Shown in pieces: positions 6,719-55,575 of a DNA stretch of 64,000 nucleotides (position 1 is the stretch's first letter; the number at the start of each line of letters is the position of its first letter). The notes beneath the pieces are model-generated. The model saw nothing but the letters and a program-made list of their open reading frames with translations. It searched no databases and was not told the origin of the DNA. Made by a program: the position numbers and the translations under genes. Location: NCBI GenBank assembly GCA_030648835.1, contig JAUSGT010000002.1, forward strand, positions 309,458 through 373,457, given 5' to 3'. Source of the stretch: Candidatus Moraniibacteriota bacterium. Lineage in GTDB: Bacteria > Patescibacteriota > Minisyncoccia > Moranbacterales > UBA1568.

Positions 6719-6736
6719 CTGTAAACACAAAAGCAT

Positions 6737-8460: not shown

Positions 8461-8478
8461 TGGTGAAATGATATTAGG

Positions 8479-8643
8479 GTGTGCGCTCGGAGGGGATCTC
8501 CCTCGACTAAACTTTTGTCGTCACAAAAGTTTGTCTGGGCGCCGCTTCGTGATTTCGTCTGTTGACGAAATAACACTTCAGCGTTCGATTCCCTACGTAC
8601 GCCAAGCAGTTGGCGTACTCCTCGTGTGCGCTCGGAGGGGATC
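8479..8643 (-). mobile_element. tRNA-linked mini-insertion (family A): 20-bp direct repeat of the tRNA-Arg 3' end (8479-8498 and 8624-8643) flanking a 125-bp element
   Basis: gtgtgcgctcggaggggatc occurs twice; internal hairpin tcgactaaacttttgtcgtcacaaaagtttgtct; same family as 30.8 kb and 33.8 kb copies. Confidence 0.6.
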
Positions 8644-8700
8644 GAACCCCCGACCCTCTGGTTCGAAGCCAGATGCTCTAATCCACTGAGCTACGAGCGC
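8627..8700 (-). tRNA. tRNA-Arg (anticodon UCG)
   Basis: Cloverleaf: acceptor gcgctcg/cgagcgc, anticodon loop cttcgaa, T-arm ggttcgatcc; CCA not encoded. Confidence 0.8.
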
Positions 8701-11152: not shown

Positions 11153-11234
11153 GTCATCCTGAACGCAGTGAAGGATCTCGGTAAACAATCCGCAGCCTTT
11201 TTATAAGGGGATTCTTCGCTTTGCTCAGAATGAC
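11153..11234. repeat. Small inverted-repeat element (25-bp imperfect TIRs gtcatcctgaacgcagtgaaggatc / gattcttcgctttgctcagaatgac), copy 1
   Basis: Termini are reverse complements; second copy at 40893-40992. Confidence 0.55.
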
Positions 11235-11353
11235 AACGTACTCTTTATTTGTTTTAAATTATACGCTTTATACGATATATTTCAATTTTCTGTCAATAGT
11301 GTTAATTTTCTCGTATTTAAGCCAAATTCAAAATACTATATTCGATATTCTAA

Positions 11354-29174: not shown

Positions 29175-29525
29175 TTAACGTATGGAAGCCGGCCGCCAGC
29201 GGGTTTTTTCCAACCGGGTCATTCGAAGCGCCGTTTTCTTGGGCGGTTTGACCGGGGTAACTTCCCCAATATCGAGGTATTGCAAGTTGGCAAGAATATG
29301 AAACTCCGTCAGACCCTGGGATTTTCCCATTCTCGTTAACAGGATCCGCCGGTTTCCCACATCCAAAGCCAGATGGGGGCGATCCCGGTGTGTTGCGTTA
29401 AATTTCCGTTGAAGTGTCCGAAGAGATCCCGCATGGCCATTGATCGGCTCACGGCTCTCAACCTCAGCCACGACAGATTTTCCTTCAGGGTTTATCTTAA
29501 CTTTCTTCACGCTAAACTGAGACAT
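29175..29525 (-). CDS. Hypothetical basic protein
   Basis: 116-aa ORF with own terminator; no recognisable motif. Confidence 0.3.
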   Translation of the reverse strand: MSQFSVKKVKINPEGKSVVAEVESREPINGHAGSLRTLQRKFNATHRDRPHLALDVGNRRILLTRMGKSQGLTEFHILANLQYLDIGEVTPVKPPKKTALRMTRLEKTRWRPASIR

Positions 29526-29616
29526 GTTTTTCCTTTTGTTTGAAGTTCACCTTTTTATCTTTTAGCCCTCTTATTGTTAAACAACATTGTCTTTATATCA
29601 GTAAAGGGGTGTTCTG

Positions 29617-29766
29617 TCAACCCCGCGCCTATTTTGCCGCTATTAGCATATCTTGTGTTTACAAATACCATTCGTTTTATTGAAATGACGGTGCTGGTCC
29701 GAATAGGACCGGGCTATTCGCCCGCGCACCGTACCTAAGGCAACGGCAAAATAGGTGCGGGGTCAA
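29617..29766. mobile_element. MITE copy 1: about 150 bp with 19-bp TIRs ccccgcgcctattttgccg / cggcaaaataggtgcgggg, flanked by TCAA
   Basis: TIRs and shared internal segment cgggcgaatagcccggtcctattcggacc (present here in reverse orientation) with copy at 41619-41769. Confidence 0.7.
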
Positions 29767-29804: not shown

Positions 29805-30605
29805 TCAAGAATTGGGGCTACAGGGGATGATTGGGAAATTGCCTATCCACTCATGGATGGCTTTTGTATAGGTGGGAGTGACTTTGGTCAAGAAAAATTC
29901 GCGCTGGGAGTCACGAGCGAGGACCTCTTCTATTTCCGCGTGTCTGACGAGATAACTTTTTAGTTTCTCTGGAATAATTTCTTCTTGGGCCAGGATATGC
30001 AAGTCGGGGAAAGCCTCACGCAGCTTAACTTTAAGAAGCCCATAGTGGGTGCATCCCAATATGAGCGTATCCGGATGAGACGGAAGGATTTTGTTTCGGA
30101 TGAGAGCAACCGCTTCTTCCTCAGCTTTTTGAAGCAGGCTTTGTTCGATGAGCGGGACAAGGGTGGGGGTGGCAAGAGTGATGACGTTGATTTGAGAATC
30201 AAGTTTCGAGAGTTCGCGATTGTATTTATCGGAATGAATGGTACGTTCGGTACCGATGATAGCTACCGTTTTAGATTTGTTAGTGATGACCGTTTCGACG
30301 GTAGGAATAATGACACCAAGTACTTTGCGATCGGGAAAAAATTCGGGAAGAAATTCATTTTGGATACGCCTGAGCGCTGTGACGGAGGCGGTGTTGCAGG
30401 CAAAGACTACCAGCTTACAGTCATGGTCAAAAAGCATTTGAAGGCTTTTCTTAACGAGCGTATATATTTCATCATCATTTTTTGTTCCGTACGGAACATT
30501 GACGGTATCGCCGAGGAAAACATAGTGATAGGCAGGCAGTTCTTGTATGACATGTCGTAAAACAAAGAGTCCGCCCAGACCTGAATCGAAAAATCCGATA
30601 TTCAT
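29805..30605 (-). CDS. murI: Glutamate racemase
   Basis: FDSGLGGL, ACNTAS and GCTHY catalytic Cys motifs. Confidence 0.85.
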   Translation of the reverse strand: MNIGFFDSGLGGLFVLRHVIQELPAYHYVFLGDTVNVPYGTKNDDEIYTLVKKSLQMLFDHDCKLVVFACNTASVTALRRIQNEFLPEFFPDRKVLGVIIPTVETVITNKSKTVAIIGTERTIHSDKYNRELSKLDSQINVITLATPTLVPLIEQSLLQKAEEEAVALIRNKILPSHPDTLILGCTHYGLLKVKLREAFPDLHILAQEEIIPEKLKSYLVRHAEIEEVLARDSQREFFLTKVTPTYTKAIHEWIGNFPIIPCSPNS

Positions 30606-30727
30606 CCCGTTAGAGATTATTATTTACTAAGCTATGATTTACAAGTCCAAAGCATATTTCCAGAACGAATCTTAAATCGTGAAGCAATCTCTAACGGGAT
30701 TCATATCTTTTGAGAAGTTACTTGAGG

Positions 30728-30874
30728 GTGCGCTCGGCAGAGAATCGGTCACAAATATTTTTCCTGACGGAAAAGTTTTTCGACTGCAGCGTTCCGACTT
30801 TCGATGCCTGACGTAAGTGAAGCAGCTCACTTACTCCTCAGCTCACTCACTTCATTCGTGTGCGCTCGGCAGGA
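30728..30874 (-). mobile_element. tRNA-linked mini-insertion (family A): about 14-bp duplication gtgcgctcggcag of the tRNA-Arg(CCG) 3' end flanking an approx. 120-bp element
   Basis: Direct repeat at 30728-30740 and 30860-30872; element end gctcactcacttcattcg matches the 33.8 kb copy. Confidence 0.55.
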
Positions 30875-30932
30875 ATCGAACCTGCATTTCATCCTTCGGA
30901 GGGATGTGTCTTATCCATTATACGACGAGCGC
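30861..30932 (-). tRNA. tRNA-Arg (anticodon CCG)
   Basis: gcgctcg/cgagcgc acceptor, anticodon stem catcc/ggatg with loop ctccgaa, T-arm ggttcgattcc. Confidence 0.75.
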
Positions 30933-31037: not shown

Positions 31038-31541
31038 TCATTGTTCTCTCACAAAGATGTTATAGCTGATTATGACGTTACCTCGTTTCAATCCTGTCAC
31101 CATGAGGTGAGCAAACTTTTTTTCTTTTTGACAGCGATATTTGACAAAAAAGGGAGTGTTGAAAAAACCGGGGCCTTTGTACGAAAGACAAATTGTCTCG
31201 CTGAGTGCTTTTTCTATGTGTGGTATCACCTCATTTTGCGAAAGTTCGACTATCTTGTCATTGCGTCCTGCGAAGCAGCTCCCGCCTAGGTTTGAGGCCA
31301 TGCTTTTTATTTCTACCTTAAATCCAGTGATGGAGCTGAGGAAAACCTCAAAAGTTTGGCGGTTCAGGCGTGATGTCGTGGTAGCGGGCCCGTAAATCAT
31401 CTCATCAGGATTCACTTTGTATTCCTTTGTTAAAGAGTGTGTATTCCCCCAATTATTTCTCGAGAAAGATTTCTTTGTGCGCTTGGCCCTCCTTCGTAAA
31501 ACTTCGGACGGGCGGGCAGGAAATTTCTTTGACAACTTCAA
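31038..31541 (-). CDS. Hypothetical protein
   Basis: 167-aa ORF in AT-rich segment; no motif recognised. Confidence 0.3.
   Translation of the reverse strand: MKLSKKFPARPSEVLRRRAKRTKKSFSRNNWGNTHSLTKEYKVNPDEMIYGPATTTSRLNRQTFEVFLSSITGFKVEIKSMASNLGGSCFAGRNDKIVELSQNEVIPHIEKALSETICLSYKGPGFFNTPFFVKYRCQKEKKFAHLMVTGLKRGNVIISYNIFVREQ
31477..31523. repeat. Repeat gtgcgcttggccctccttcgtaaaacttcggacgggcgggcaggaaa (copy 1)
   Basis: Direct copy (partly tandemly duplicated) at 32737-32813; the two bracket two small membrane-protein genes. Confidence 0.6.
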
Positions 31542-32713: not shown

Positions 32714-32736
32714 AACCCTTTAACTTTTCCTCTTTG

Positions 32737-32835
32737 GTGCGTTTGGCCCTCCTCCGTAAGACTTCGGACTGGTAAACCCTCCTTCGTAAAACTTCGGACG
32801 GGCGGGCAAGAAACTCCCTCGACTAAACTTCTGTC
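32737..32835. repeat. Composite repeat: 1.5 tandem copies of the 31477-type repeat followed by a truncated family-A element head (ctccctcgactaaacttctgtc) next to tRNA-Ser
   Basis: Read directly; shares gtcgactaaactt motif with tRNA-linked elements. Confidence 0.5.
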
Positions 32836-33656: not shown

Positions 33657-33729
33657 GCGCTTGTAGCTCAGTGGATAGAGCATCTGGTTGCGGTCCAGAG
33701 GGTCGCAGGTTCGATTCCTGCCAAGCGCA
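33657..33729 (+). tRNA. tRNA-Arg (anticodon read as GCG; unusual, ACG expected)
   Basis: gcgcttg/caagcgc acceptor, anticodon stem tctgg/ccaga with loop ttgcggt. Confidence 0.65.
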
Positions 33730-33894
33730 CACGAACGAAGTGAGTGAGCCGAAGAGCGAGTGAACTGTTTCACTCGCGCCAGGAATCGAACGCCGGAGTG
33801 TTATTTCGTCAGGAGACGAAATCACGAGGCGGTGCCTAGACAAACTTTTATGTCGACAAAAGTTTAGTCGAAGGAGTTTCCTGCCAAGCGCACA
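33715..33894 (+). mobile_element. tRNA-linked mini-insertion (family A): 17-bp direct repeat ttcctgccaagcgcaca (33715-33731 and 33878-33894) flanking a 146-bp element
   Basis: Element is about 85% identical (reverse complement) to the 8.5 kb copy, incl. hairpin gtcgacaaaagtttagtcga. Confidence 0.65.
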
Positions 33895-40839: not shown

Positions 40840-40892
40840 GGGGGAAAAGAATAGTGAATTGTGAGTCAAGAATTAGGCGTTTCGCTACTCTT

Positions 40893-40992
40893 GTCATTCT
40901 GAGTGAAGCGAAGAATCCCATTGTTCTTAGATGATTTTTTGAAAGAGATCCCTGCCTACCGGCAGGCAGGCTTCGACTGTGCTCAGGATGAC
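40893..40992. repeat. Small inverted-repeat element copy 2 (TIRs gtcattctgagtgaagcgaagaatc / ...gctcaggatgac)
   Basis: Termini match copy at 11153-11234; inner palindrome cctgcctaccggcaggcagg. Confidence 0.55.
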
Positions 40993-41064
40993 ATTAAGAA
41001 ATGTCAAAAGTTTCCTAAAAATAATACGAGGCAGCTTGCGCGGTTGCACAAACTGCCTTGAGGT

Positions 41065-41310
41065 TCAGTGACTTGAAGCGTGGTGGGTGGAGAGGGTTTT
41101 TCTGGTCCGTTTCTGTGGTGCTGTTTTGAAGTACTCGTAGCAACCGCCGCAGATGGCAAGGAGCAGGAGCGCCTGACCGAGTATGACCAGGTCGTTTTTG
41201 AAAAACTCTGGAGCAATCTCGGCATATTGGATGGCGCCGAGGACAGCGCTAACGATGGCGCTGGCAATCATTATCGCGAGCGGAACTTCTTTACCTGACT
41301 GAATTTTCAT
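41065..41310 (-). CDS. Small membrane protein, hypothetical
   Basis: About 80 aa, two TM helices. Confidence 0.3.
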   Translation of the reverse strand: MKIQSGKEVPLAIMIASAIVSAVLGAIQYAEIAPEFFKNDLVILGQALLLLAICGGCYEYFKTAPQKRTRKTLSTHHASSH

Positions 41311-41618
41311 GGTTATCTCTCTGAGATGAAGGGTTGGAGGAGCAGGATTAGTGCTGGCCTGCGAGCTTTGCAAGGCTTTCCAGCAGGTCGGGAATGGCAG
41401 GGGGCTGATTGAGCGGTATGCTTCTGATATTGACTGTATACCGTCTCCGGCTCATTTTGTAAGGTCGAGTTTTGCGATCAGAAAAGCGAGCAGGACGATC
41501 CATAGGTATCACCGGTAATTGGGAGTTGTACCAAGATTGCATCACAGCCTCCTTGACTAGGTTGATCGGGTTGGGAACGAACAACAACCGTGTATGATAG
41601 CACAAAAACGGTGAAAAG

Positions 41619-41769
41619 TCAACCCCGCACCTATTTTGCCGTTCTCTCGGGTGCGACGCGCGGGCGAATAGCCCGGTCCTATTCGGACCAGCGTCGCTAT
41701 TTCAAAGAAGTATAAAGTGATTGAAAACATAAAACGTTATTAATGATGGCAAAATAGGTGCGGGGTCAA
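41619..41769. mobile_element. MITE copy 2: perfect 18/19-bp TIRs ccccgcacctattttgcc(g) / ggcaaaataggtgcgggg flanked by TCAA
   Basis: Same TIR and internal core as copy at 29617-29766; internal region in opposite orientation. Confidence 0.7.
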
Positions 41770-41966
41770 TAGTACAGGTAGCGGGGTTGCCATTTTTTCT
41801 GCTTTCTGCTACTGTAGAAGCGTTGTAAGTTTTTCTTTCTGGAGTAACGCTCGACAGACAGAGGTTGCCAAATCTCGGATGTTCGTAGTAGGGCCAGGCG
41901 GAGCTCTTTTAAATGAGCTCTAGGGAAAGGTCACCTTACACGGTAATCAAGTTAGTAGATTCGAAT

Positions 41967-42314
41967 ATGGCAACCAAATTGTATGTTGGTGGCGTGTCCT
42001 ACGGTACGACCGAGGATAGCTTGCGTGAGGCTTTTGCCCAGGCAGGCAATGTCGTTTCTGCCAAGATCATTATCGACAAAATGACAGGCCGCTCACGCGG
42101 TTTCGCATTCGTCGAAATGGGTTCGGAGGAAGATGCCCAAAAGGCTATCGCCCTCTGGAATGGCAAGGAACTGGACGGACGCACCCTCACTGTCAATGAA
42201 GCTCGTCCTTTGGAAGAGCGTGCTCCTCGCACTGGTGGTTCCGGCGGATTTCGTGGTGGCAATGGTGGCAACCGCGATTACGGTTCGGGCAACCAAGGCG
42301 GAAGCCGTTGGTAA
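41967..42314 (+). CDS. RRM-type RNA-binding protein with Gly-rich tail
   Basis: RNP2 LYVGGV, RNP1 RGFAFVEM, C-terminal GGSGGFRGGNGG. Confidence 0.8.
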   Translation: MATKLYVGGVSYGTTEDSLREAFAQAGNVVSAKIIIDKMTGRSRGFAFVEMGSEEDAQKAIALWNGKELDGRTLTVNEARPLEERAPRTGGSGGFRGGNGGNRDYGSGNQGGSRW

Positions 42315-42984: not shown

Positions 42985-43075
42985 GGAGAGGTGGCTGAGC
43001 GGCTGAAAGCGGCAGGTTGCTAACCTGTTATAGGACCTTAAAATCCTATCGAGGGTTCGAATCCCTCCCTCTCCG
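42985..43075 (+). tRNA. tRNA-Ser (anticodon GCU), long variable arm; left boundary of island
   Basis: ggagagg/cctctcc acceptor, anticodon stem cagg/cctg with loop ttgctaa, long extra arm. Confidence 0.75.
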
Positions 43076-43123
43076 CATCAAGCATTTAGTATCGAGAGAG
43101 ACCCGAGAGCCTCGAGTTAATGT

Positions 43124-43834
43124 ATGAAAAATCAAGCACAGCACAGCCCCCTGGCTTTAACAACAAATGGCCTAATTGTGCCAGTTGGTTTTCCCGTAGC
43201 TTCATACGAATCAATCCACAGTATTGTAAGCACTGCTCAAGCGAGTCATTTATTGTATGAACACTACGCGGGAGCTTGGAATGCTTTAGCTTATCGTTTT
43301 AGGGCATCAATGGATCATGGTGATGCCTTCGTACTTCTGTTCAATAGTAATGGTCCTACACCTCCACCAGAAGAGCGGTACATGCAAGAGAAAGCCCTAT
43401 TTGATTTCTTTAGTGCAGGATTTTCGGTTTTTGAATCAACATTTTATGGTTTATATGTGATAGGCGCCTTTTTATCGCCCACTCTATTTTCTCTCTCATC
43501 CCAAAAAGAGCAACAGCAAATTACTCCAAACCGAACTAGAGATACATTTACCCGCGCATTTCCTTCCGATCCAATTTTGAATACCTTTTCAGCGCTGTTT
43601 ATGGATCCCGAATACCAAAAGTGGCGGGAAATTCGAAATGTACTTACGCATCGTACTGCGCCAGGTCGTCGAATATATGTAAGTATCGGAAGTGATGATG
43701 CACCACCTACAGAATGGAAGCTTAATAATAGCGTACTTGATGCTTCAATTGTGACAAATGGGAAAAGTGAACTTTCCCGTCTCTTAACTTGTTTATTAGA
43801 GGGCAGTGCAAAGTTTGTGGCAACACGATTATAA
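43124..43834 (+). CDS. Hypothetical protein (island cargo)
   Basis: 236-aa ORF, no motif recognised. Confidence 0.4.
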   Translation: MKNQAQHSPLALTTNGLIVPVGFPVASYESIHSIVSTAQASHLLYEHYAGAWNALAYRFRASMDHGDAFVLLFNSNGPTPPPEERYMQEKALFDFFSAGFSVFESTFYGLYVIGAFLSPTLFSLSSQKEQQQITPNRTRDTFTRAFPSDPILNTFSALFMDPEYQKWREIRNVLTHRTAPGRRIYVSIGSDDAPPTEWKLNNSVLDASIVTNGKSELSRLLTCLLEGSAKFVATRL

Positions 43835-43848
43835 AAATATTGATAAGT

Positions 43849-44823
43849 ATGGCAAAACGTAACCTAATAAAAATTCCTCAAGTAATACTTGAACGTATTC
43901 GCACCTTTGATCAAGATGATATTGTGGTTGCTTGCGCTAAACTTCTCCGCCCGGAAGATATTTCGCGGTATGCTCATTTAGGGTTGGCGTTAGTGGATGG
44001 AAAATTGATCATCCCGTCACCTGCCATACCGAATCCAGACGCCGGTCGATATTCTAAAGCAAATGTTGAGGGGTATGAAAAGATTCGAAAGGATTTACCA
44101 AAAGTGCCTAAGGAATTTTCGTTTGAAGCACCGGATTGGGGAGATTGGTCGAATGGATCTCATACAGTTGCATGGACACGCAACGTTTACCGGAGAGACT
44201 TTTATCCTCCTAAGGAAGTTGAACTTTCGATTACGTTAGTTGAGGAAAAAAGCACAGGTTTTGTTGTGAAGTTTGCAATTGATCAAGTGATGAATCGAAG
44301 AACTGAAAACTTTGAACAAGAATTATTTTACAACCTTAATCTTCTCCAAGAAAATGTTGGTGCGGCAGATGTTTTCCGATATACGGCATCTTTAGCTGAT
44401 TACGCAGCTACAATACGAGTAGACTGGGTAATTTTACCACCCGGTACCGTTGATGAGGTAATACGCGGAATGCTCAAAGGGAAGAGTAAAATTACTCCTG
44501 CGCAAGAGGCTACTATGAAGGAAAGGGTGACGTTGATGTCTCGGCTTGAACCGGAAGTATATATTGCTGGTAGTGACGGTTTTCTGCGATACTTTGGTGC
44601 GAAATTTGGTGACGATTTTGTAGCCTTTGAAAATATTCGCTATGGCAATGCAATTTATGTTATGTACGATTCATGGGAAGAGCTAAGTAAAAAGAGTCGA
44701 ATTGACCTTTTAAGTGGTCCGCGTGACAGTTTCGATCGCATCGAACATAGGGATGGATGGGAAGAACGATTTAGTGCGATGGTTCAGGGATACCGTGATA
44801 AGAAAAAAAATAAGAAGTCTTGA
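43849..44823 (+). CDS. Hypothetical protein (island cargo)
   Basis: 324 aa from MAKRNLIKIPQ; no motif recognised. Confidence 0.4.
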   Translation: MAKRNLIKIPQVILERIRTFDQDDIVVACAKLLRPEDISRYAHLGLALVDGKLIIPSPAIPNPDAGRYSKANVEGYEKIRKDLPKVPKEFSFEAPDWGDWSNGSHTVAWTRNVYRRDFYPPKEVELSITLVEEKSTGFVVKFAIDQVMNRRTENFEQELFYNLNLLQENVGAADVFRYTASLADYAATIRVDWVILPPGTVDEVIRGMLKGKSKITPAQEATMKERVTLMSRLEPEVYIAGSDGFLRYFGAKFGDDFVAFENIRYGNAIYVMYDSWEELSKKSRIDLLSGPRDSFDRIEHRDGWEERFSAMVQGYRDKKKNKKS

Positions 44824-44897
44824 ATCTGGTCCGAGAGCCTCGAAATGAGCAATAAAAAAAACAGCAGTTTTTACCGCTGTTTTTTTATTGTTTAATT

Positions 44898-46247
44898 TTA
44901 TGACAAAGCAGTTTCATATTTCCTGAGGATTAATTTTTTCTCTTTTGTCAGAATGAGTCGACTTTTGAGACTAGCGAGCAATTCCCGCTTTTCAATCATC
45001 TTTCCCTCTTTGAGAATATATTTAGCATACGTGCGTATATCAAAGGCCTCTTTCTTATCGACATCACTTTCTTTGCCATCCATTCTAAGAACCGTATGTT
45101 GGAACTTGTTGTAGCGATCGACCTCTTCTTCAAATTGTTTCTTCAGTCCGATTTCATTGATATCAATCTCATCGATAACATGGAGCATTTGTAAGATGAG
45201 TGCCTCTTCCCGCAAATAACCAAGCTTGCAAGTAAGATCTCTTGAGCGAGTGCATCCGTAGTAGATATACTTTGTTGTGCTGCCGTTTTTCAGTTTCTTG
45301 TATTTTTCATCAGCCGTAATGCCTGATCCGCAGAGTTCGCAGGTGAGGAGTTTGGTGAAGGCGAACTCTTTGCTGTCCCGTGTTATGCGATCGCGCTTCA
45401 GTTGCTCTTGGGTAAGTTCGAAAAGCTCTTTAGTAATAATGGGTTCGTGCTTGCCTTCATACCATTTACCACTCCCTCTTGGAAATTCAAAGGGGCCAGA
45501 GTAGAAAGATGTCTGGAGTATGCGATAAATGTTCCCGAGTGAAAGATTTTTGTTACCTTTAGACTTGAAGTTGATATCAAATTTGAGCCAGTGATAAACT
45601 TTCCGCCCGCTCCAGCGTTCGTAAGCCACTCTTTCAAACATTTTTCTGATGACTGGTCCGCGCTCAGGATCAACAATGACTTGGCCTCTACGATCAGGCG
45701 AGGTGACATTGAGATACCCGGTTGGCGCGCACGTTGGCCACATGCCCATCTCACAGCGCATACGGAGACCACGCTTCACATTCACGCCTCGATTATCATT
45801 TTCCAGTTTCGCTTGTGAGCCGAGAATCATCAGAAGAAACTTCTCATTGGGAGAATTTGTGAAAGATTGTCCGAAGGTACGAATTTCTTTGAGCTGTTTG
45901 GAATCCATCAGATCCACCAGTGATCCGAGGTCACCAGCATTTCTGCTCAATCGATCCGGCGCCCAGGTAAGGATGCCATTGAATCGATCTTTCCTGATGT
46001 CCTCAATGAGTTCGTTGTATACTGGCCGTTGTCCTGAGTTTTTGGCTGAATGGCTTTCCCTTCGAATCTCTATAATCTCTAGTCCATCTCGCTCAGCGAT
46101 CTGGAGCATTTCCTTTACTTGAGAATCTATGGAAAGCACCTGTCTTTCCTCTGATTCACTGCTCTTTCGAGCGTAGAGGCAGTACCTCGTTTTTAGTGGT
46201 ATTTCTGCCTCTACAGCTATTCGATTGGCCGGACTGTGTATATTCAT
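44898..46247 (-). CDS. Large serine recombinase
   Basis: YARKSS catalytic Ser region, recombinase domain, Cys4 zinc ribbon (CELCGS...YYGCTRSRD), C-terminal coiled coil. Confidence 0.85.
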   Translation of the reverse strand: MNIHSPANRIAVEAEIPLKTRYCLYARKSSESEERQVLSIDSQVKEMLQIAERDGLEIIEIRRESHSAKNSGQRPVYNELIEDIRKDRFNGILTWAPDRLSRNAGDLGSLVDLMDSKQLKEIRTFGQSFTNSPNEKFLLMILGSQAKLENDNRGVNVKRGLRMRCEMGMWPTCAPTGYLNVTSPDRRGQVIVDPERGPVIRKMFERVAYERWSGRKVYHWLKFDINFKSKGNKNLSLGNIYRILQTSFYSGPFEFPRGSGKWYEGKHEPIITKELFELTQEQLKRDRITRDSKEFAFTKLLTCELCGSGITADEKYKKLKNGSTTKYIYYGCTRSRDLTCKLGYLREEALILQMLHVIDEIDINEIGLKKQFEEEVDRYNKFQHTVLRMDGKESDVDKKEAFDIRTYAKYILKEGKMIEKRELLASLKSRLILTKEKKLILRKYETALS

Positions 46248-46363
46248 AGGTTTGTTCTTTACCCAATGAATGACGCAGACCGATGAACTAGTCCAGACCC
46301 CTCAAAAAGCCCTCAAACTGCCTATAATTTCACATTTTTGACAGAATGGAAGTGCACAAACAA

Positions 46364-47830
46364 TCATATAATCCATATCCTTGGTATGATCGGCGGATCT
46401 TCCATAGTGCTTAAAACGACGTTTGAAAACGCATCAGCAAGATCATCGTGAGCCTCAACACCGAAATGCACGATCTGATTAATTAACTCCTCGCATCCTT
46501 CTCGTGGAAAGAGTATTTTTCCGCTCTTGACTGCATAGGCTGTCAGTATGAGTCGCGTGCGCTTATCTTGATTTCCTGGTCTCGTTGTTTTGACCTTTCT
46601 GATACCCTCGCTTTGCAACTGTTGCGGTAGAGACCTCTGATACGCAACATCTTCAATAACAAATATAGGATGTTTGTCATTCTCTTTAAAGTAGGAACTA
46701 TCTATTGCTTTGCACATGTCCACTGTTTCTGGGAAATCCATCTTCCTATTTACTATTTGTGGCAAGATATATACCCTCAAATCTTTCCCGTCGCCATACA
46801 GCATTGCCGGTACCATGGCCGTATAATCCGCTGTGTCCTTTTTTGAGATCGCCAGGTCAACCCCGATACGCACTTCAACGTGTTTGTCATACCCTTGGCA
46901 ATCCTTTTCGCCATGCGGTAACTCATCATAAAATTGGATCCATTCTCGGTGAATAGCTTGTTCTTCATCGGCAACGATGTGAAGCATATATTCTCGCTCC
47001 CAAGCAAATTCGTTTCCCGCTTTTCTTTTTTCACTTTCAATATCTTCCATAGAAAGATATTTTCCAGGCCATAAAATCTCCTGACCTCTTATGATGGGGA
47101 ATTCTTTGAATACGCCATCGATTCTTTCTTTTTCTACATCTTCCTTGATTCGCATAAGAAGCGAATCTTCGTGAAGCAGATTCCCAACGATAACCAGTCT
47201 CGTATTGCGATCTCCTGTAGGAATAACTTCTGCGGTCAGCCACTGATATGTCTTATTTCTTCCTTCGCGAGTCTTGGTAGAAGCCATGTCTTCCACATCG
47301 TCACAGATAATAAGGTCTGGTCGATGTTGATTGTGCCGCAAACCACGGATACTTTGTTCGCGAGAAGCAGCTGTAATTCGGGCATTGAGTTGAGAAAATA
47401 CAAGAGACGATGAACCCCATTCATCGGACTCCTCACGAAATGGCCCAAGATCATTCTTGAGAGTCGCGTTATTCTCTAGCTCTTGCCGGAGGTTCATCAT
47501 ATGTTGCTTCGCCTGTGATTGAGTCTGGCAAAGGATGAGCGCAAATTTTTTCTGTTGTCTGCCAAGAATCGCCCAGATTGGGTAGGAGGTGGTAAGTATC
47601 GTAGATTTTCCGCTGCCTCGGAAAGCGACAACGAAGAAATTACCAGCATTTTCGTTTTCCGAAAGATCAAACATCTCTGCTTGGAACTGAGCGGTCGGGT
47701 ATTTAACGTAATGGGCGAAGTAAAAATGGAAAAAGTGCCAGTGGCTTTCTTTAATGATTGCCACTCTGACTTTTCGATCCCTGATCATCGCCTCCGCTAA
47801 CCCCGGGGTTATTGTCCTTCTGTTGTTCAT
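46364..47830 (-). CDS. Phage terminase large subunit
   Basis: Walker A AFRGSGKST, Walker B ICDDVED, C-terminal RNaseH-like nuclease (IGVDLAISKKDTADYT). Confidence 0.8.
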   Translation of the reverse strand: MNNRRTITPGLAEAMIRDRKVRVAIIKESHWHFFHFYFAHYVKYPTAQFQAEMFDLSENENAGNFFVVAFRGSGKSTILTTSYPIWAILGRQQKKFALILCQTQSQAKQHMMNLRQELENNATLKNDLGPFREESDEWGSSSLVFSQLNARITAASREQSIRGLRHNQHRPDLIICDDVEDMASTKTREGRNKTYQWLTAEVIPTGDRNTRLVIVGNLLHEDSLLMRIKEDVEKERIDGVFKEFPIIRGQEILWPGKYLSMEDIESEKRKAGNEFAWEREYMLHIVADEEQAIHREWIQFYDELPHGEKDCQGYDKHVEVRIGVDLAISKKDTADYTAMVPAMLYGDGKDLRVYILPQIVNRKMDFPETVDMCKAIDSSYFKENDKHPIFVIEDVAYQRSLPQQLQSEGIRKVKTTRPGNQDKRTRLILTAYAVKSGKILFPREGCEELINQIVHFGVEAHDDLADAFSNVVLSTMEDPPIIPRIWII

Positions 47831-48221
47831 AAGATTGTGTCGTTATTTGATTTACTGAAGATAATCGCAGTGCTTCGCGAACGATCTCTTCCTGCTCTGG
47901 AGTAAGCACATCCTGAGACTGAATGTTGGCCGTTACTTCTACGCGCTCACGGAATTTCTGATGTCGGTGCCGGAGCCAGAAGCTGATCGCTTGATAACTC
48001 TTATCTCTGATAAGCGAAATGAGCTGAGATTCAGACATGTCGTTGATAAGCGCCTCGCCTTCGCTCAAAGCTTCTTCGAGTGATTGGCGAAACTTCTCGT
48101 CCTCATCTCGCCAGCGGTAGACGGAAGAACGCGCGACACCGACCTTTTCGCACGCCACCTGGATAATGGGAATCTTGCGGAGTTGCTCGAGAAATAAAAT
48201 CTTGGCTCGATCCTTTTTCAT
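47751..48221 (-). CDS. Terminase small subunit-like HTH protein
   Basis: N-terminal HTH VGVARSSVYRWRDE; immediately upstream of and overlapping terL. Confidence 0.5.
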   Translation of the reverse strand: MKKDRAKILFLEQLRKIPIIQVACEKVGVARSSVYRWRDEDEKFRQSLEEALSEGEALINDMSESQLISLIRDKSYQAISFWLRHRHQKFRERVEVTANIQSQDVLTPEQEEIVREALRLSSVNQITTQSYEQQKDNNPGVSGGDDQGSKSQSGNH

Positions 48222-49549
48222 AAGATTTTTTTCGGCTTTAATCCGGTTAATTTCGACCAGCGATTCAGAATCACCTCAGCGTAGATGGGGCTTTTTTCCA
48301 TCAGAAAACACTTGCGCTGCATTTTCACCGCTGCAATCAAAGTCGAACCGCTTCCACCATAGGGCTCAAAGATGAGATCGCCTCGCTTGGTCAGTATCTT
48401 GATGTAGGGAATAAGTATTTCCAGAGGTTTCGTGCCGAAAATAATTCCCTGTCCGGAAGATTTTTCATCGGCAGCGATATGCTCAATAAAATCAGTTGGG
48501 CAATACTTCTTGCCTTTGCCATAAGATTCCCAGTGGGGACTGCCCGAGGTTGCGAAAAGCGCCGTTTCGTATTCGGTTTGAAGCAATGCATCCGATTCTG
48601 GTTCAACGTTCAGCTCAACCTTGCCCGAAGTGCCGACCATTGCGAAGTCATGCTTATTGAAGAATTTATATTTGGCGCTAAATCCTTGAACGCGATTGGG
48701 GATATGCCAAATAATTGTATTTCTGTATTTCCAATGTTTTTCTAACTCATTCCAGATAGTCCGAAGATTTTTTGGATTCTCATAGACGATGATCGAAAAG
48801 TCTGGCTCCTGAATCTTGGCGACATTGTTCATCCAGAGTTCGGTAAAGTTGTCCGGGAGTGTTTCAGTGCCTAGATACACTCGATCGCGTTTTAACCCGA
48901 AGCCTTTGGTTACATTGCCGTTTTTCTTTTTCTTACCCTTGAGGTAATCCAGAAGATACGGAGGGTCCGTGAAGCACATATGCGCCTTATGTCCGTCAAA
49001 AAGTGTTAGAACATTTGCTTCAATTGTGGAATCCCCAATCATTACTCTGCTACCGTTTAGGTCGTATACTTCGCCGCTCTTTACTTTGATTTTTGTTATG
49101 TCTAACTTCGCCAGTTCTTTCTCTAAATCAAATACTTCTGGCGTTTCATCAATTCCAAAAATTTCGTCCATTTCTTCGCTCGAGAACCCAACGCTCCCGA
49201 GGAACTGTTCGCTGAAGTTGGAAAGAATATCCCAATCGAACTCGCCGGTGTTTTTATTCAGGCGAATATTCAGTTCCTTTTCTTTTTCCAAATCAGGAAT
49301 AGAAATGTATACCACTGGTACCTCTTTGATGCCGAGCTTCTTGGCCATAGCCAGGCGGAAGTGGCCACCGATGAGAATGTTCATTCGTTCCGATGCCGAA
49401 TTTACTACGAACGGGTCGACCAACCCGAATCGTTTGATACTTTCCTGAAGCTGGGTTTCTGCCTCCTTGCTCCATTTGCGCGGATTATATTCTGACGCCT
49501 TGAGGAGCGTGACGTCGACGTACTGCACCTGCAATTTTTCTTTTGGCAT
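48218..49549 (-). CDS. ParB-like nuclease domain fused to N4/N6 DNA methyltransferase (phage-type orphan MTase)
   Basis: N-terminal ParB/Srx motif (YNPRKWS...GGHFRL), MTase motif IV TDPPY and motif I FEPYGGSGST. Confidence 0.8.
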   Translation of the reverse strand: MPKEKLQVQYVDVTLLKASEYNPRKWSKEAETQLQESIKRFGLVDPFVVNSASERMNILIGGHFRLAMAKKLGIKEVPVVYISIPDLEKEKELNIRLNKNTGEFDWDILSNFSEQFLGSVGFSSEEMDEIFGIDETPEVFDLEKELAKLDITKIKVKSGEVYDLNGSRVMIGDSTIEANVLTLFDGHKAHMCFTDPPYLLDYLKGKKKKNGNVTKGFGLKRDRVYLGTETLPDNFTELWMNNVAKIQEPDFSIIVYENPKNLRTIWNELEKHWKYRNTIIWHIPNRVQGFSAKYKFFNKHDFAMVGTSGKVELNVEPESDALLQTEYETALFATSGSPHWESYGKGKKYCPTDFIEHIAADEKSSGQGIIFGTKPLEILIPYIKILTKRGDLIFEPYGGSGSTLIAAVKMQRKCFLMEKSPIYAEVILNRWSKLTGLKPKKIL

Positions 49550-49708
49550 AATGTTTGCCTTAATGTTTATCAGGCACTCCTGCCTGTCAGGCTATATGCT
49601 GAAATTTCAGCCACTAAGAAACCTTTGCTTTATATGAAGCAATAAAATATTTTGCATAAAGAAAAAAGCCCGCTGTAATTTCAGTGGGCTACTAATAATC
49701 AGATTGGG

Positions 49709-50686
49709 TTAGTATGAATCTTCGTTTGGCTGAGGGTCTTCTTTGAATCCTTTCTTTTTCCGGGTAATAAACGTTTCCCCGCTACCCCTTAGACCAACGG
49801 GTGGTATAAGGATAAATCTAGAATGATAGTATCCATATTCTGAATAATTGAAAAACGGTTCTTCGTCTATACCGAATACCTGCCTCAGATGCTTTGATAG
49901 TATACTCTTAGTCGCATGAAGAGCATCCTTTTGTTTGAAATGTTCGTTACCAAGTAAATTATTTACCGTTGGTTGCTCACCTTTCCCCAGCTTAAAAGCC
50001 GAGAGTAAAAGGAGGAGAGTCCAGGCTTTGTTCGGAGTTTTATCTTTAGTGTTTGTTTTTACAAACCGAAGAACTTCTCGATCGAAACGACCGATAAATT
50101 TTTTCCCACATCGGATTTCTACCTCAATGTCGCTGGTAAATGCGAAGGTGATGTCTTCCCATCGGGTACCTGATGGCAATGTTACTATGGCTGTTCCTGA
50201 AAGGAGTTTTTGTGCTCTCTCCTTTGCTCGTTCCTCGACTTTCTCAAGAACTCTATTGGTTATAGTCTCAACGAGATCATCCTGGTGTAGGACTACTTCT
50301 CGCGTCTGTGGTCTTATCGGTCGAGTGGCGATAACTTCCGTTGGGATGTTGGGGACAAAGCGATTCCAAGAATCAACTATCTGACTGACGGATAGTACGA
50401 TCCGCTCCCGTTCTTTTTGAGCCCTTTGGATTTGTTCCTGCAGGTTGCCAAAGACTTCAAATGCATGTCTGTAGGTTTCGACAGCATAGTTCATCTGTTT
50501 TGCTAGGTTTTGCAAAGCCCCCGCTTGTTGCTGGAAGAACTGGTGGAGCAGAACCCGTTGTCTGAGAAACGGCTCTATATTGAAGGCAATCTCTTTTTGG
50601 ATGGCTAAAACATTAAACATAGGCACTAAGGCCATTTGTTGTGTGCTTTTTCCTTTTGGATTGGACGCTTTACTTTTGACTTTCAT
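49709..50686 (-). CDS. Hypothetical protein
   Basis: 325-aa ORF divergent from defence operon. Confidence 0.4.
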   Translation of the reverse strand: MKVKSKASNPKGKSTQQMALVPMFNVLAIQKEIAFNIEPFLRQRVLLHQFFQQQAGALQNLAKQMNYAVETYRHAFEVFGNLQEQIQRAQKERERIVLSVSQIVDSWNRFVPNIPTEVIATRPIRPQTREVVLHQDDLVETITNRVLEKVEERAKERAQKLLSGTAIVTLPSGTRWEDITFAFTSDIEVEIRCGKKFIGRFDREVLRFVKTNTKDKTPNKAWTLLLLLSAFKLGKGEQPTVNNLLGNEHFKQKDALHATKSILSKHLRQVFGIDEEPFFNYSEYGYYHSRFILIPPVGLRGSGETFITRKKKGFKEDPQPNEDSY

Positions 50687-50715
50687 AGTTGTAAACTAAT
50701 AGTAACTCATATCTT

Positions 50716-50916
50716 ATGAAGAATCAAACGAAGAAAATCGAGGAATACCCGGAGATTTTGACGCTCCAGGAAGCTTGTGAGGTTTTGAATTGCCACCCAA
50801 ATACGCTTCGGAATTGGGATAACAAAGGCATCCTCAAGGCAATTCGGTTTGGCACGAGGAAGGACAGAAGGTACAAAAAGGAGGATGTGTTGAAAGTTAT
50901 CAATAAAGGCCACTAA
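50716..50916 (+). CDS. Excisionase/MerR-family HTH DNA-binding protein (possible controller or Xis)
   Basis: 66 aa; LTLQEACEVLNCHPNTLRNWDNKGIL HTH; 3 nt upstream of the SNF2 gene. Confidence 0.6.
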   Translation: MKNQTKKIEEYPEILTLQEACEVLNCHPNTLRNWDNKGILKAIRFGTRKDRRYKKEDVLKVINKGH

Positions 50917-50919
50917 AGT

Positions 50920-53862
50920 ATGGCGAAAATTACTTCCTATCATGCAAAATATTTTGCCCACGAGCTAACTAAGCGGTGTTCTTCGGATAGCTTAGAAAAA
51001 CTATCCTCAACACTTTCTAACGCTCAAGTTGATCTGAACCCTCATCAGATTGAGGCGGCACTTTTTGCATTTAAATCGCCGCTTTCTAAGGGAGCAATTC
51101 TGGCTGACGAAGTTGGTTTAGGGAAAACAATTGAAGCCGGCTTGGTGCTGTCTCAAAAATGGGCGGAACGAAAAAGAAAGATTTTATTAATAGTGCCGTC
51201 TAGTCTTAGAAAGCAGTGGAACTCAGAACTTCGAGAAAAGTTTTTTTTGCCATCAATAATTTTAGAAGCAAAATCTTTTAATCAAACTGTCAAAGAAGGT
51301 AATCTCAACCCTTTTAATCAGGATAACGCAATTATCATTTGTTCTTATCACTTCGCTAGAGCCAAATCATCCTATATCAAACAAACCCCTTTTGATTTAG
51401 TGGTTATTGATGAAGCACATCGTCTGCGTAATGTTTATAAAACGAGTAGTAAAATTGCCCGAGAAATAAAAGATGCCATTCAAGAATATCCTAAGCTACT
51501 TCTCACTGCCACTCCTTTGCAAAATTCTTTACTCGAGCTATACGGATTAACCAGTATTATTGACGACCATATTTTTGGGGATCTCAGTAGTTTTAAGGCG
51601 AATTATGCCAAAGTTTCACGAGAGCAGGATATTTACGAAAACGAGCTTGGTTTAGTTGAGCCGAGACAAGAAATGTTTGCTGATTTGCGTAATAGACTAA
51701 AGCCAATTTGTATTCGTACACTGCGTCGCCAGGTTTTGGAATATATTAATTATCGCGATCGCAAACCAATCACTCAGGACTATGTACCGACTGAGCAAGA
51801 AATTGAACTTTATGATGGGATGACTGAGTATCTTCAACGCCCACGTCTTTATGCTTTGCCGTTTAGCCAGCGTCAGCTTATGACGCTTATTTTACGCAAA
51901 CTTTTAGCCTCGTCATCATTTGCTATTGCCAGTACGCTCAATGGATTGGTCTATAAGTTAGAAAAATTGGAAGAAGAAATAAGAAAAAAATCAGCGGTGT
52001 TAGACGAAACACTTCCTTTAGGGATTGAAGAAAATTATGAGGCTTTTGAAACTACAGCTGATGAATGGATTGACGATGAGGAAGAAGAGATTGATGACAA
52101 GATAAAAGAAAAGAAAAAGTATACACTCGAAGATATTCCTTTGATTCAATCAGAAAAAACAGACCTAGAAAAATTTAGAGACTTAGCAAGAGCCATTTTC
52201 AAAAATTCCAAAGGAGAATCCTTGCTCATTGCTTTAGAAAAAGGTTTCGAAATGACTGCAACGCTTGGTGCTCAGAAAAAAGCAGTTATTTTTACAGAAT
52301 CAAGAATCACTCAGGATTATCTCTGGAAACTACTTTCGGATAGTGGTTACAAAGACAAAATGCTCTTATTCAATGGTTCTAATAATGATCAAAAGTCAAA
52401 AGATATTTATGCTGAATGGTTGAAGAAAAATAAAGACACTGACAACATAACAGACTCGAAGACCGCAGACCTTCGTGCCGCACTGGTGGACTACTTCAAG
52501 TCGGATGCCGAGATTATGATTGCTACTGAAGCGGCTGCTGAAGGCATCAACCTACAATTCTGTTCACTTGTTATCAACTATGATCTCCCATGGAATCCTC
52601 AAAGAATTGAGCAGAGAATTGGCCGTTGTCATCGTTATGGACAAAAACATGATGTAGTTGTGGTCAACTTTGTAAATCGAAAAAACGCTGCTGATCAGCG
52701 CGTTTATGAACTGCTTGATCAAAAGTTCAAACTTTTCAAAGGCGTTTTTGGGGTAAGCGATGAAGTGCTTGGTAGTATTGAGTCAGGGGTTGATTTTGAA
52801 AAACGTATTGCAGCTATTTACCAATCCTGTCGCACCGAGGAGGAAATCAACAATGCTTTTGACACCTTACAGACAGAAATGGACGATTCGATTCAGGAAG
52901 GCATGCGCGGAGCGAAAGAAAAACTTCTGGAAAATTTTGACGCGGATGTACATGAAAAACTCAAGATAAATTTGCGTGAGAGCAAGGGATATTTAGAAAC
53001 TTATGAAAAGTGGCTCTGGGATATCTCTCAGTACTTTCTAGGTGACAAAGCGGTTTATGCTGAAGATGAATATTCTTTTACACTTAAACGCAATCCATTT
53101 CCTGATGAAGATATTGATGAAGGTCCTTATAAAATTGGTAAAAATATTGATGATGCTCACATTTACCGTCCAGGACATCCTCTGGCTGAGAGAATTTTGC
53201 GTGAGGTAAAAGCACAGTCGTTATCAAGCGCTGAAATAGTTTTTGATTATTCCAATCACGGAAATATTATTTCTCCAATTAAAGAGTTGGTTGGTACTAG
53301 CGGTATTTTACAAGTATCAGAATTGACTATTGACTCGTTTGAAACCGAAGACAATATTCTGGTGACAGCAATAAAAAACAATAGCGAAGTAATTGAAGAA
53401 GATGTCGCAAAAAAACTTTTCTTACTCAGTGCTGAGGTGAAGGGAGATACTATCAAAACAGTAAGCGAAGAGGTTCAACAAAGAGAGCAGGAAAAGGTAA
53501 ATATTCTTACTGCAAGCATTGCCGGACGTAACAGCGAATTTTTTGATGATGAGGTAGACAAGCTTGATAAGTGGGCTGAAGATGTGAAAAAGAGTATGGA
53601 AATAGAACTCAAGCGTATGGATATTGATATTAAAACAATGAAAACGAACGCCAAAAAAGTCTTGAATTTAGGAGAAAAGGTAAAACTTCAACGAGAAATA
53701 AAGGATTTAGAAAAGAAACGAAACGATATGCGTCAGAAACTTTATAAGGCACAAGACGAAGTAGATGTGAAGAAAGAGAATTTACTGGAGAAAGTAGAAG
53801 CACAGCTGAAACAAAAAATGACGCTTGCACCATTATTTACAATACGATTTAAGGTGATATAA
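50920..53862 (+). CDS. SNF2-family helicase/ATPase with about 380-aa C-terminal coiled-coil extension
   Basis: Motif I DEVGLGKTIEAG, II DEAHRLRN, III LLLTATPLQNSLLELY, VI NPQRIEQRIGRCHRYGQ. Confidence 0.85.
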   Translation: MAKITSYHAKYFAHELTKRCSSDSLEKLSSTLSNAQVDLNPHQIEAALFAFKSPLSKGAILADEVGLGKTIEAGLVLSQKWAERKRKILLIVPSSLRKQWNSELREKFFLPSIILEAKSFNQTVKEGNLNPFNQDNAIIICSYHFARAKSSYIKQTPFDLVVIDEAHRLRNVYKTSSKIAREIKDAIQEYPKLLLTATPLQNSLLELYGLTSIIDDHIFGDLSSFKANYAKVSREQDIYENELGLVEPRQEMFADLRNRLKPICIRTLRRQVLEYINYRDRKPITQDYVPTEQEIELYDGMTEYLQRPRLYALPFSQRQLMTLILRKLLASSSFAIASTLNGLVYKLEKLEEEIRKKSAVLDETLPLGIEENYEAFETTADEWIDDEEEEIDDKIKEKKKYTLEDIPLIQSEKTDLEKFRDLARAIFKNSKGESLLIALEKGFEMTATLGAQKKAVIFTESRITQDYLWKLLSDSGYKDKMLLFNGSNNDQKSKDIYAEWLKKNKDTDNITDSKTADLRAALVDYFKSDAEIMIATEAAAEGINLQFCSLVINYDLPWNPQRIEQRIGRCHRYGQKHDVVVVNFVNRKNAADQRVYELLDQKFKLFKGVFGVSDEVLGSIESGVDFEKRIAAIYQSCRTEEEINNAFDTLQTEMDDSIQEGMRGAKEKLLENFDADVHEKLKINLRESKGYLETYEKWLWDISQYFLGDKAVYAEDEYSFTLKRNPFPDEDIDEGPYKIGKNIDDAHIYRPGHPLAERILREVKAQSLSSAEIVFDYSNHGNIISPIKELVGTSGILQVSELTIDSFETEDNILVTAIKNNSEVIEEDVAKKLFLLSAEVKGDTIKTVSEEVQQREQEKVNILTASIAGRNSEFFDDEVDKLDKWAEDVKKSMEIELKRMDIDIKTMKTNAKKVLNLGEKVKLQREIKDLEKKRNDMRQKLYKAQDEVDVKKENLLEKVEAQLKQKMTLAPLFTIRFKVI

Positions 53863-53866
53863 AAAT

Positions 53867-55570: not shown

Positions 55571-55575
55571 ATACT

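Follow-up and report, generated by a model that had tools for sequence, protein, structure and literature searches.

Bacterial miniature inverted-repeat transposable elements (MITEs), such as the Correia elements of Neisseria, are non-coding sequences of 100 to 170 bp with near-perfect terminal inverted repeats (TIRs) and a short target duplication. Correia elements have 26-bp ends, duplicate TA, and are confined to Neisseria; to our knowledge, many bacterial MITEs likewise lack a known autonomous partner. Elements of the IS1380 family have ends beginning with CC and duplications of 4 to 5 bp. The piggyBac elements show a 4-bp duplication of the TTAA type, with the variants TCAA and TAAA, and TIRs that begin with CCC (PMC10813416), and IS1380-like transposases are their prokaryotic counterpart (PMC5718144). 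Here, we analyzed two sequences of this general kind in a stretch of 64,000 nucleotides from a genome of Candidatus Moranbacteria (Patescibacteria), contig JAUSGT010000002.1, positions 309,458 to 373,457 (referred to as the window). We conclude, with a probability of about 0.72, that they are old copies of a MITE-like element of about 143 bp that is non-coding and non-autonomous. Both copies are members of a large superfamily of small palindromes, in which nothing but the outer 9 to 16 bp is shared by all. In intergenic DNA, the duplication is TTGA (rarely TTTA) and corresponds to bases 1 to 4 of a pre-existing -35 hexamer of the sigma-70 type.

Both copies (Table 1) are intergenic, and neither contains an open reading frame (ORF) of 60 amino acids or more. 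Copy 1 is neighbored by murI (29805-30605, minus strand) and by a gene encoding a 116-aa protein (29175-29525, minus strand), and copy 2 by a small minus-strand gene and by the gene of an RRM protein (41967-42314, plus strand). This RRM protein is 100% identical to one encoded by a Candidatus Moranbacteria MAG, whose lineage is Patescibacteria group / Parcubacteria group / Candidatus Moraniibacteriota. A search of the window with the 18-nt end pattern, allowing up to three mismatches, returned four matches, which are exactly the four ends of the two copies; 0.05 matches were expected, and none of 100 shuffled sequences reached four. The TIRs of copy 2 are perfect over 18 bp, and those of copy 1 carry a single G/A mismatch. 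Aligned as its reverse complement, copy 2 is 80% identical to copy 1 (115/143), and without inversion the identity drops to 61.5%. Over 200 nt of flanking DNA, the two sites share only background identity (54 to 60%), which excludes a segmental duplication. Both window sequences are hence confirmed as genuine copies of one mobile-type element, and they show the size, the lack of coding capacity, the TIRs, the 4-bp duplication, the dispersed copies, and the presence/absence variation of a MITE.

These results agree in most points with a previous interpretation made from the letters of the window (the sequence-only reading), which had placed two intergenic TIR-bounded copies with TCAA flanks at these two sites and had seen their shared core in opposite orientations. 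The latter is explained by the inversion of the whole elements relative to each other. The description as a 150-bp MITE with 19-bp TIRs was right as to the type of element and the presence of TIRs and has to be corrected as to their dimensions: the element proper measures 142 bp (copy 1) or 143 bp (copy 2), reaching 150 and 151 bp when both TCAA are included, and the TIRs span 18 to 19 bp.

Table 1. Coordinates in the window of the two element copies and of the features that belong to or adjoin them
Feature	Position	Strand	Sequence or description
Copy 1 of the element	29621..29762	+	142 bp; on the + strand, AT-rich arm left and GC-rich core right
Copy 1, left TIR	29621..29639	+	CCCCGCGCCTATTTTGCCG
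Copy 1, right TIR	29744..29762	+	CGGCAAAATAGGTGCGGGG
Copy 1, left 4-bp direct repeat	29617..29620		TCAA; minus strand reads TTGA, bases 1-4 of the -35 hexamer
Copy 1, right 4-bp direct repeat	29763..29766		TCAA
Promoter-like site abutting copy 1	29592..29620	-	TTGACA, 17 nt, (TG-A)TATAAA; directed toward the 116-aa gene (29525-29175)
Copy 1, structured core	29688..29732	+	7-bp stem ACGGTGC / GCACCGT
Copy 1, first core hairpin	29696-29710		GGTCC-GAATA-GGACC
Copy 1, second core hairpin	29710-29724		CGGGC-TATTC-GCCCG
Copy 2 of the element	41623..41765	-	143 bp; reversed relative to copy 1
Copy 2, left TIR	41623..41640	+	CCCCGCACCTATTTTGCC
Copy 2, right TIR	41748..41765	+	GGCAAAATAGGTGCGGGG
Copy 2, left 4-bp direct repeat	41619..41622		TCAA; start of the minus-strand -35 box; kept in the element-free relative L178
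Copy 2, right 4-bp direct repeat	41766..41769		TCAA
Promoter-like site abutting copy 2	41594..41622	-	TTGACT, 17 nt, TATCAT; 10/12 matches, TG before the -10
Copy 2, structured core	41653..41697	+	Stem GCGACGC / GCGTCGC; hairpins 41661-41675 and 41675-41689
Degenerate TIR-like end (suggestive only)	41770..41785	+	TAGTACAGGTAGCGGGG / TCAATAGTACAGGTAGCGGGG; between copy 2 and the -35 box of the RRM gene

We searched for relatives in genomes (one per species) with the exact 18-nt end and obtained 50 loci, most of them single chance matches. Paired ends 127 to 171 bp apart were present in metagenome-assembled genomes (MAGs) of Uhrbacteria, Nealsonbacteria, Gribaldobacteria, and Parcubacteria, and several MAGs of the candidate phyla radiation harbor two to three copies each. 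Metagenome contigs added at least about 80 further paired-end elements, found among at least 120 loci. Taken together, the relatives are hosted by Patescibacteria MAGs and Planctomycete-like contigs, span 49 to 179 bp, and fall into discrete size classes of 49, 53, 76, 82, 103, 141 to 148 (the window type), 162 to 172, and 179 bp. Their interiors are unrelated between size classes, and all that is common to every class is CCCCGCACCTATTTTG / CAAAATAGGTGCGGGG. Further small palindromes share just the outer CCCCGCACC, and the common outer 9 to 16 bp can be written as CCCCGCACC(TATTTTG). The GC-rich 82- and 103-bp classes adjoin DUF1501 and DUF1549/DUF1553 genes, pairs of which are typical of Planctomycetota and their relatives, indicating that the ends are conserved across phyla. 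One contig with a related element (L125) and the window have the same gene order, ValRS-TsaD-glycosyltransferase-RecG. We found no description of this family in the searchable literature, where the end sequence appears in no paper and where nothing relevant was found on MITEs in candidate phyla or in RNase P RNA or 23S rRNA. Assembly breaks were considered as a sign of many copies and discarded: in the short-read assembly of the source sample, contigs break within the 41-nt core common to both copies, which is no proof of further ones.

Behind the TIR element, contigs of the Gribaldobacteria type carry a conserved leader of 45 to 60 nt that runs straight into the start codons of five different genes (L022, 4946-5006 and 6100-6160; L062, 3816-3876; L125, 11359-11404; L168, about 6710-6771 on the reverse strand). 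This leader consists of TGTAAGAAyyTGTAAC, a hairpin with locus-specific arms, and then TCTAACATG, and it lacks a Shine-Dalgarno sequence. Three of the genes it precedes were read by eye as rplX, rpsN-like, and gltX-like. The repeated unit in these contigs takes in a promoter or leader.

We then analyzed the flanks of the relatives. Exact 4-bp direct flanks were found in 15 of the 32 independent relatives of at least 125 bp (0.12 expected), thirteen of them TTGA/TCAA and two TTTA/TAAA, and three further elements showed them with one mismatch. No other flank length gave a signal in this set. This is in good agreement with the proposal of the sequence-only reading that TCAA represents a target-site duplication or a target preference. 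A variant element in L161 is bordered by TAAG at either end, and the element in L021 by TTTA. The repeated four bases thus change together, which indicates that they are a copied target and not part of the element sequence.

Outward from one end, Patescibacteria-type copies read GGGG followed immediately by TTGAC(A/T), 16 to 18 nt, and a TATAAT-like hexamer. Matches of at least 9/12 to the -35/-10 pattern begin directly at the element boundary (offset 0) in 14 flanks and one base away in a single flank; none begins at offsets 2 to 11. Moreover, a -10 match of at least 5/6 follows 9 of the 13 element-adjacent TTGAC, versus 5 of the 32 other intergenic TTGAC of the window (Fisher p = 0.0009). 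The association with promoters is therefore stronger than a mere preference for TTGAC. Both window copies abut such a site on their left. The one at copy 2 was listed by the consensus scan and is followed by AAGGAGG and by the ATG of the small gene near 41537, while the one at copy 1 is absent from the stricter scan because its -10 hexamer has no T at position 6. As the duplication comprises bases 1 to 4 of the -35 box, the promoter is rebuilt intact against one element end. This exact targeting of the -35 box is the new point of our analysis.

Related Moranbacteria provided an empty site for copy 2. Four closely related contigs (L178 to L181), whose RRM protein is 97% identical and whose flanking DNA is 84 to 95% identical to that of the window, contain no TIR anywhere. 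L178 keeps the promoter of the small gene up to ...AAAAAGTCAA; the promoter stretch, ...CGGGTTGGAAACGAACAACAACCGTGTATGATAGCATAGAAATGGTAAAAAGTCAA, is 91% identical to window positions 41567-41622, and the homology ends exactly at the first base of copy 2. TTGACT-17-TATCAT is thus present without the element, indicating that the element inserted into the -35 box and did not bring the promoter with it. The homology resumes at window position 41787, at the -35 box (TTGCCA, 41786-41791) of the RRM promoter. On the right side, collinearity is interrupted by a 521-aa gene of L178. The degenerate TIR-like end that immediately precedes the resumed homology may have been left by another insertion, in this case against the RRM promoter, which is only suggestive. 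The whole region from the ABC-2 permease gene to the RRM gene (40842-41821) is a variable spot in related Moranbacteria, occupied by 46 bp in the more distant L183, by the 521-aa gene in L178 to L181, and by small genes and the element (980 bp) in the window.

For copy 1, no empty site was found, the only homolog of the adjacent 116-aa protein being in a strain that also bears the element (L174). The L174 copy differs by about 14 substitutions (90% identity), and its outermost TIR pair has changed from C..G to T..A on both sides. Retention of copy 1 with this number of substitutions indicates that the copies are old and not visibly active in this lineage. The check for presence and absence in related strains that the sequence-only reading had called for thus gave a divided answer: copy 2 is missing from L178 to L181, but copy 1 is kept in the only related strain found. 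Elsewhere, elements are nested or joined: an 81-bp variant sits in a hairpin loop in L062 and is absent from the ortholog L022, a 53-bp element lies inside a 145-bp element in L106, and L169 harbors a tandem pair sharing TCAA.

Each window copy is composed of an AT-rich arm and a GC-rich core, the latter formed by a stem around two adjacent hairpins. The hairpin stems are 5 bp long, and their loops, GAATA and TATTC, are mutually complementary. Three pairs of the enclosing stem have changed on both sides between copy 1 and copy 2, and the folding z-scores lie between -7 and -9 relative to shuffled sequence on both strands. Cores of the 166- to 172-bp class contain an additional hairpin, placed between the first two. 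When 12 cores of this class were aligned, 91.8% of the cells were paired, compared to 77.9% after shuffling and 29 to 45% with a slid partner; 13 pairs had changed on both sides, and the three hairpins were 96 to 98% paired. Among the loop-loop pairs, none had changed on both sides, and three of five never vary. Nevertheless, G.U pairs show no strand bias (65/911 on one strand and 57/909 on the other), no internal sigma-70-type promoter was found in 26 elements, the interior is found facing either way with respect to the neighboring promoter and genes, and whole cores are flipped between otherwise collinear elements (L040 and L075; copy 2 of L022 and its ortholog in L062). The core is under selection for pairing, yet not on one strand, and behaves as a DNA palindrome rather than as a strand-specific RNA gene. 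The latter was rejected on account of the G.U counts, the lack of an internal promoter, and Rfam 15, which gave no match to the elements at the gathering score in a scan of the window and, in a search of copy 1 up to E = 10, only chance-level matches (E of at least 0.25). An invertible promoter switch was likewise rejected, since there is no internal promoter, flips are seen only between species, and the only recombinase of the window is about 3 kb away, in a separate island.

Many of the relatives without a duplication sit in or beside structural RNA genes. In L070 (2004-2464), the element constitutes the P3 stem-loop of RNase P RNA, CGCCCCGCACCUA[86 nt]GGUGUGGGGAGGAAAGUCC, and in L121 (8600-9036) and its copy L101 it replaces P12 of the same RNA. 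In L064 (1-2949), an element of the window type replaces the tip of a 23S helix at positions 573-600 of the Rfam LSU model, which we take to be helix 25, the classical site of rRNA intervening sequences. A 172-bp element lies inside the 3' domain of the 23S gene in L102, and others are located 12 nt upstream of the 16S gene (L081) and about 140 nt upstream of the 23S gene (L104). The native helices at the L070, L121, and L064 sites have CCCC...GGGG tips, which resemble the element ends, and in helix-tip insertions the terminal repeat continues the native helix. Helix extension is the only type of insertion that a structural RNA would be expected to tolerate, which suggests why self-complementarity is preserved.

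We also searched for the enzyme that mobilizes the element. The window encodes no DDE transposase among its scanned proteins, as the sequence-only reading had stated, and the sole recombinase it encodes, a large serine recombinase, belongs to a separate island of low GC. In the more than 170 fetched loci, no ORF lies between paired ends, and no PF13701 or PF13843 transposase was detected in the window or in these loci. Clustering of the ORFs of 66 loci revealed neither a recurrent transposase nor a recurrent TnpA/RAYT-like gene flanked by the ends. A scan of viral contigs gave two chance matches only, BLAST of the end against plasmids returned nothing relevant, and tblastn of the ISEcp1 transposase, run on the window and on every locus, a search that is weak for distant relatives, returned nothing below E = 0.08. 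Three sorts of candidate autonomous elements were discarded. Single TIR matches, in genomes and metagenomes alike, are located within coding sequence and resemble chance hits; the long-spaced pairs in L057 (1521 bp) and L116 (787 bp) contain no transposase, L116 being a large palindromic contig; and pairs of the 9-nt outer end 0.3 to 4 kb apart are combinations of separate small elements. The sequence-only reading had proposed that the TIR could identify the family of the cognate transposase, but it led to none in the window, the loci, the viral contigs, or the plasmids. The search with the TIR that it had suggested brought up relatives in many genomes but no full-length element with a transposase. 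As no transposase was found, the class of the enzyme can only be inferred, and the CCC... ends together with the 4-bp TTNA duplication tentatively suggest a piggyBac/IS1380-like one.

We thus favor the reading of the two sequences as copies of a MITE-like element. Such an element would be inserted by a cut-and-paste enzyme of the DDE type, possibly piggyBac/IS1380-like, that acts in trans and makes a 4-bp staggered cut. Self-folding would be kept either because it makes insertions harmless when transcribed, or because the enzyme requires it, or both. A more far-reaching and rather unlikely version is that the elements are the footprint of an undescribed cut-and-paste system, common to Patescibacteria and Planctomycete-like bacteria, that homes to sigma-70 promoters. 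Its cut would fall on bases 1 to 4 of the -35 box, and it may recognize the promoter or a sigma factor bound there rather than TTGA alone. A cargo that folds on itself would allow it to colonize helix tips of rRNA and RNase P RNA as well.

Several observations speak against a MITE-like element. No transposase and no autonomous copy with these ends was found anywhere we searched. The empty site of copy 2 is clean at the left junction only, the right side being rearranged in the relative, and copy 1 is kept at the same locus in L174, the sole related strain found. A duplication is missing from 14 of the 32 long relatives and from all 12 short GC-rich ones. The 16-bp end is invariant from Patescibacteria to Planctomycete-like bacteria, which is unusually conserved for the ends of insertion sequences or MITEs, and a constraint other than a transposase may act on it. 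Finally, covariation together with invariant loops shows that folding as a single strand is under selection, and a simple parasite model does not explain this on its own.

In a first alternative, the elements would move as single-stranded DNA by means of an HUH-type enzyme, like palindrome-associated transposable elements (PATEs) derived from IS200/IS605 or like REPIN/RAYT. They would then insert next to TTGA and carry their own TTGA-like cleavage site, so that there would be no true duplication. Indeed, covarying hairpins without strand bias dominate the element, hairpins and whole cores are flipped between orthologs, several insertions are in hairpin loops or helix tips, and 29 of 44 independent elements, many of them without a duplication, have TT at exactly one flank, which is a modest excess only. 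Cleavage sites of IS608 are moreover tetranucleotides such as TTAC and TCAA. However, IS200/IS605 and REP elements do not have long perfect TIRs, the two flanks covary as expected for a copied target and not for a fixed site borne by the element (in L021, in L161, and, shifted by one, as CTTG in L109), and none of the loci has a TnpA- or RAYT-like gene flanked by these ends. We therefore regard this mode of transfer as improbable.

Slightly less probable still is that the sequences are primarily a structured RNA or regulatory DNA module of the host, such as a 3'-end or processing signal, a promoter insulator, or an RNase III site, and that their spread is secondary. The strong fold (z = -7 to -9), the covarying core with its invariant complementary loops and three compensatory pairs between the window copies, and the conservation of copy 1 at one locus in a related strain with wobble-type changes would all be expected of such a module. 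The same is true of relatives within transcribed rRNA, RNase P RNA, and ribosomal-protein operons and of a non-random position with respect to promoters. Yet the sequences match no Rfam family and have no internal promoter, their G.U pairs are equal on both strands, and their interior faces both ways relative to promoter and genes. In addition, a close relative does without copy 2, and between orthologs copy 1 diverges no more slowly than the promoter region beside it.

It is very improbable that the element itself carries the -35-like TTGAC and makes hybrid promoters where it lands. Many insertion sequences do create hybrid promoters, and GGGG followed by TTGAC is found at one end of most Patescibacteria-type copies. 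For copy 2, this is contradicted by the element-free L178, which already has TTGACT-17-TATCAT, and in general the hexamers differ from site to site (TTTACT, TTAACA, TTGAAT, TTGCTT), with their first four bases repeated on the far side. Last, chance similarity or a segmental duplication has next to no probability: the window does hold only two copies, but four ends against 0.05 expected, flanks at background identity, and dozens of relatives refute it. A segmental duplication with no copies beyond these two was what the sequence-only reading had named as its refutation, and this is not the case.

The window contains further features that are distinct from the element. Three tRNA-Arg genes (tcg, 8626-8700, minus strand; ccg, 30860-30932, minus strand; gcg, 33657-33730, plus strand) are each followed by a homologous non-coding trailer of about 100 to 165 nt (8460-8625, 30700-30859, and 33731-33894). 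The trailers are 79 to 85% identical to each other, and each ends in a direct repeat of the last 16 to 17 nt of its tRNA. They have no Rfam match at E up to 1 and look like a miniature element integrated at the 3' ends of tRNA-Arg genes, with no integrase inside. Beside tRNA-Ser(gct) (42985-43076) lies the low-GC island (43100-61600; 34 to 44% GC compared to about 48%), which is probably a prophage remnant or a defense island. According to Pfam, it encodes a large serine recombinase (44898-46247), a terminase large subunit (46364-47830), an HTH small-terminase-like protein (47751-48221), and a ParB-DNA methylase (48218-49549), all on the minus strand. An SNF2-type helicase, a second methylase, and a restriction-type helicase (50920-58401) were recognized by eye from the translations only. 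The island also contains a SAM riboswitch (S box, 53.8 bits, 60519-60618) upstream of two small ORFs without a Pfam match (60674-61099 and 61096-61542).

Other repeats are present as well. A 32-nt inverted pair (11205-11236 / 40891-40922, 91% complementary) with the motif TTGTCATTCTGAGTGAAGCGAAGAATCC may represent another small repeat family, and a similar GTCATTGCGAGC...GCAATGAC block occurs inside the 172-bp element in the 23S gene of L102. Short repeat families (CCCTCCTTCGTAAAACTTCGGACGGGCGGGCA...) are found at 31474-31533, 32734-32823, 32805-32835, and 33855-33885, in the low-GC, tRNA-rich stretch at 30.8-34 kb, and partly overlap the tRNA trailers and the start of the ORF at 31038-31541. 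Finally, a 22-nt inverted repeat (30597-30618 / 30686-30707, 91% complementary, GATATTCATCCCGTTAGAGATT) is located between murI and tRNA-Arg(ccg), and L125 has a similar CCCGTTAGAAGTC hairpin between recG and a tRNA.

If our reading is true, candidate-phyla bacteria, whose very small genomes are considered poor in transposons, would gain a widespread family of mobile DNA that is as yet undescribed. The exact match of the duplication to the -35 box shows in what way mobile DNA can persist among densely packed genes and leave promoters unbroken, and it raises the idea of promoter-directed integration. The sites in helix 25, P3, and P12 link MITE-like DNA to the intervening sequences of stable RNAs, and a system homing to promoters, should it exist, would be a concrete source of the long-unexplained intervening sequences of rRNA. 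The end that is invariant across phyla is a precise handle for finding the enzyme.

How, then, does the element compare with known systems? Like integron attC sites, which are imperfect palindromes of 57 to 141 bp, it is conserved only at its ends; an attC origin was rejected because the core sites RYYYAAC / GTTRRRY, cassette arrays, and an adjacent integrase are all missing. With REPIN/RAYT and the IS200/IS605 palindromes, it shares the character of a short hairpin repeat spread by an enzyme encoded elsewhere. Those repeats lack long TIRs and duplications, and REP types are restricted to lineages and linked to a flanked RAYT gene. Identity with REPIN/RAYT or an IS200/IS605 PATE was therefore rejected, given the long TIRs and duplications and the absence of a recurrent flanked gene. 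The palindromic elements of Rickettsia are similar in being small palindromes that genes, including RNA genes, tolerate by virtue of self-folding, but they are unrelated in sequence, are found mainly in protein-coding genes, and have neither the ends nor the duplication seen here. The intervening sequences of 23S rRNA (helices 25 and 45) are paralleled by L064, in which a helix tip is replaced by an extended stem-loop, and by the RNase P RNA relatives, in which the tips of P3 and P12 are replaced in the same way. They differ in that they classically have no common terminal sequence, and the window copies are not in rRNA.

The likeness to piggyBac and IS1380 elements consists of the TTGA, TTTA, and TTAA-like duplications and of ends that begin with CCCC. 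In contrast, the preferred target is TTGA and not TTAA, and the TIR is unrelated to that of ISEcp1, whose ends begin with CCTAG. The element also resembles bacterial MITEs of the Correia type, which match the element in size, lack of coding capacity, and TIRs, also occur in many intergenic copies, often by promoters, form a hairpin when transcribed, and have a cognate transposase that is unknown there too. Unlike in Correia elements, the duplication here is of 4 bp (TTGA) and falls on the -35 box, the CCCCGCACC... ends are unrelated to theirs and invariant across phyla, the interiors of relatives are unrelated to one another, and the core is a covarying multi-hairpin fold. The 4-bp duplication and the CCCCGCACC... 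ends led us to reject identity with them. Overall, the element is set apart from described MITEs by a duplication that coincides exactly with the -35 box, by a 16-bp end that is invariant across phyla in spite of unrelated interiors, by its covarying core, and by its presence at helix tips of rRNA and RNase P RNA.

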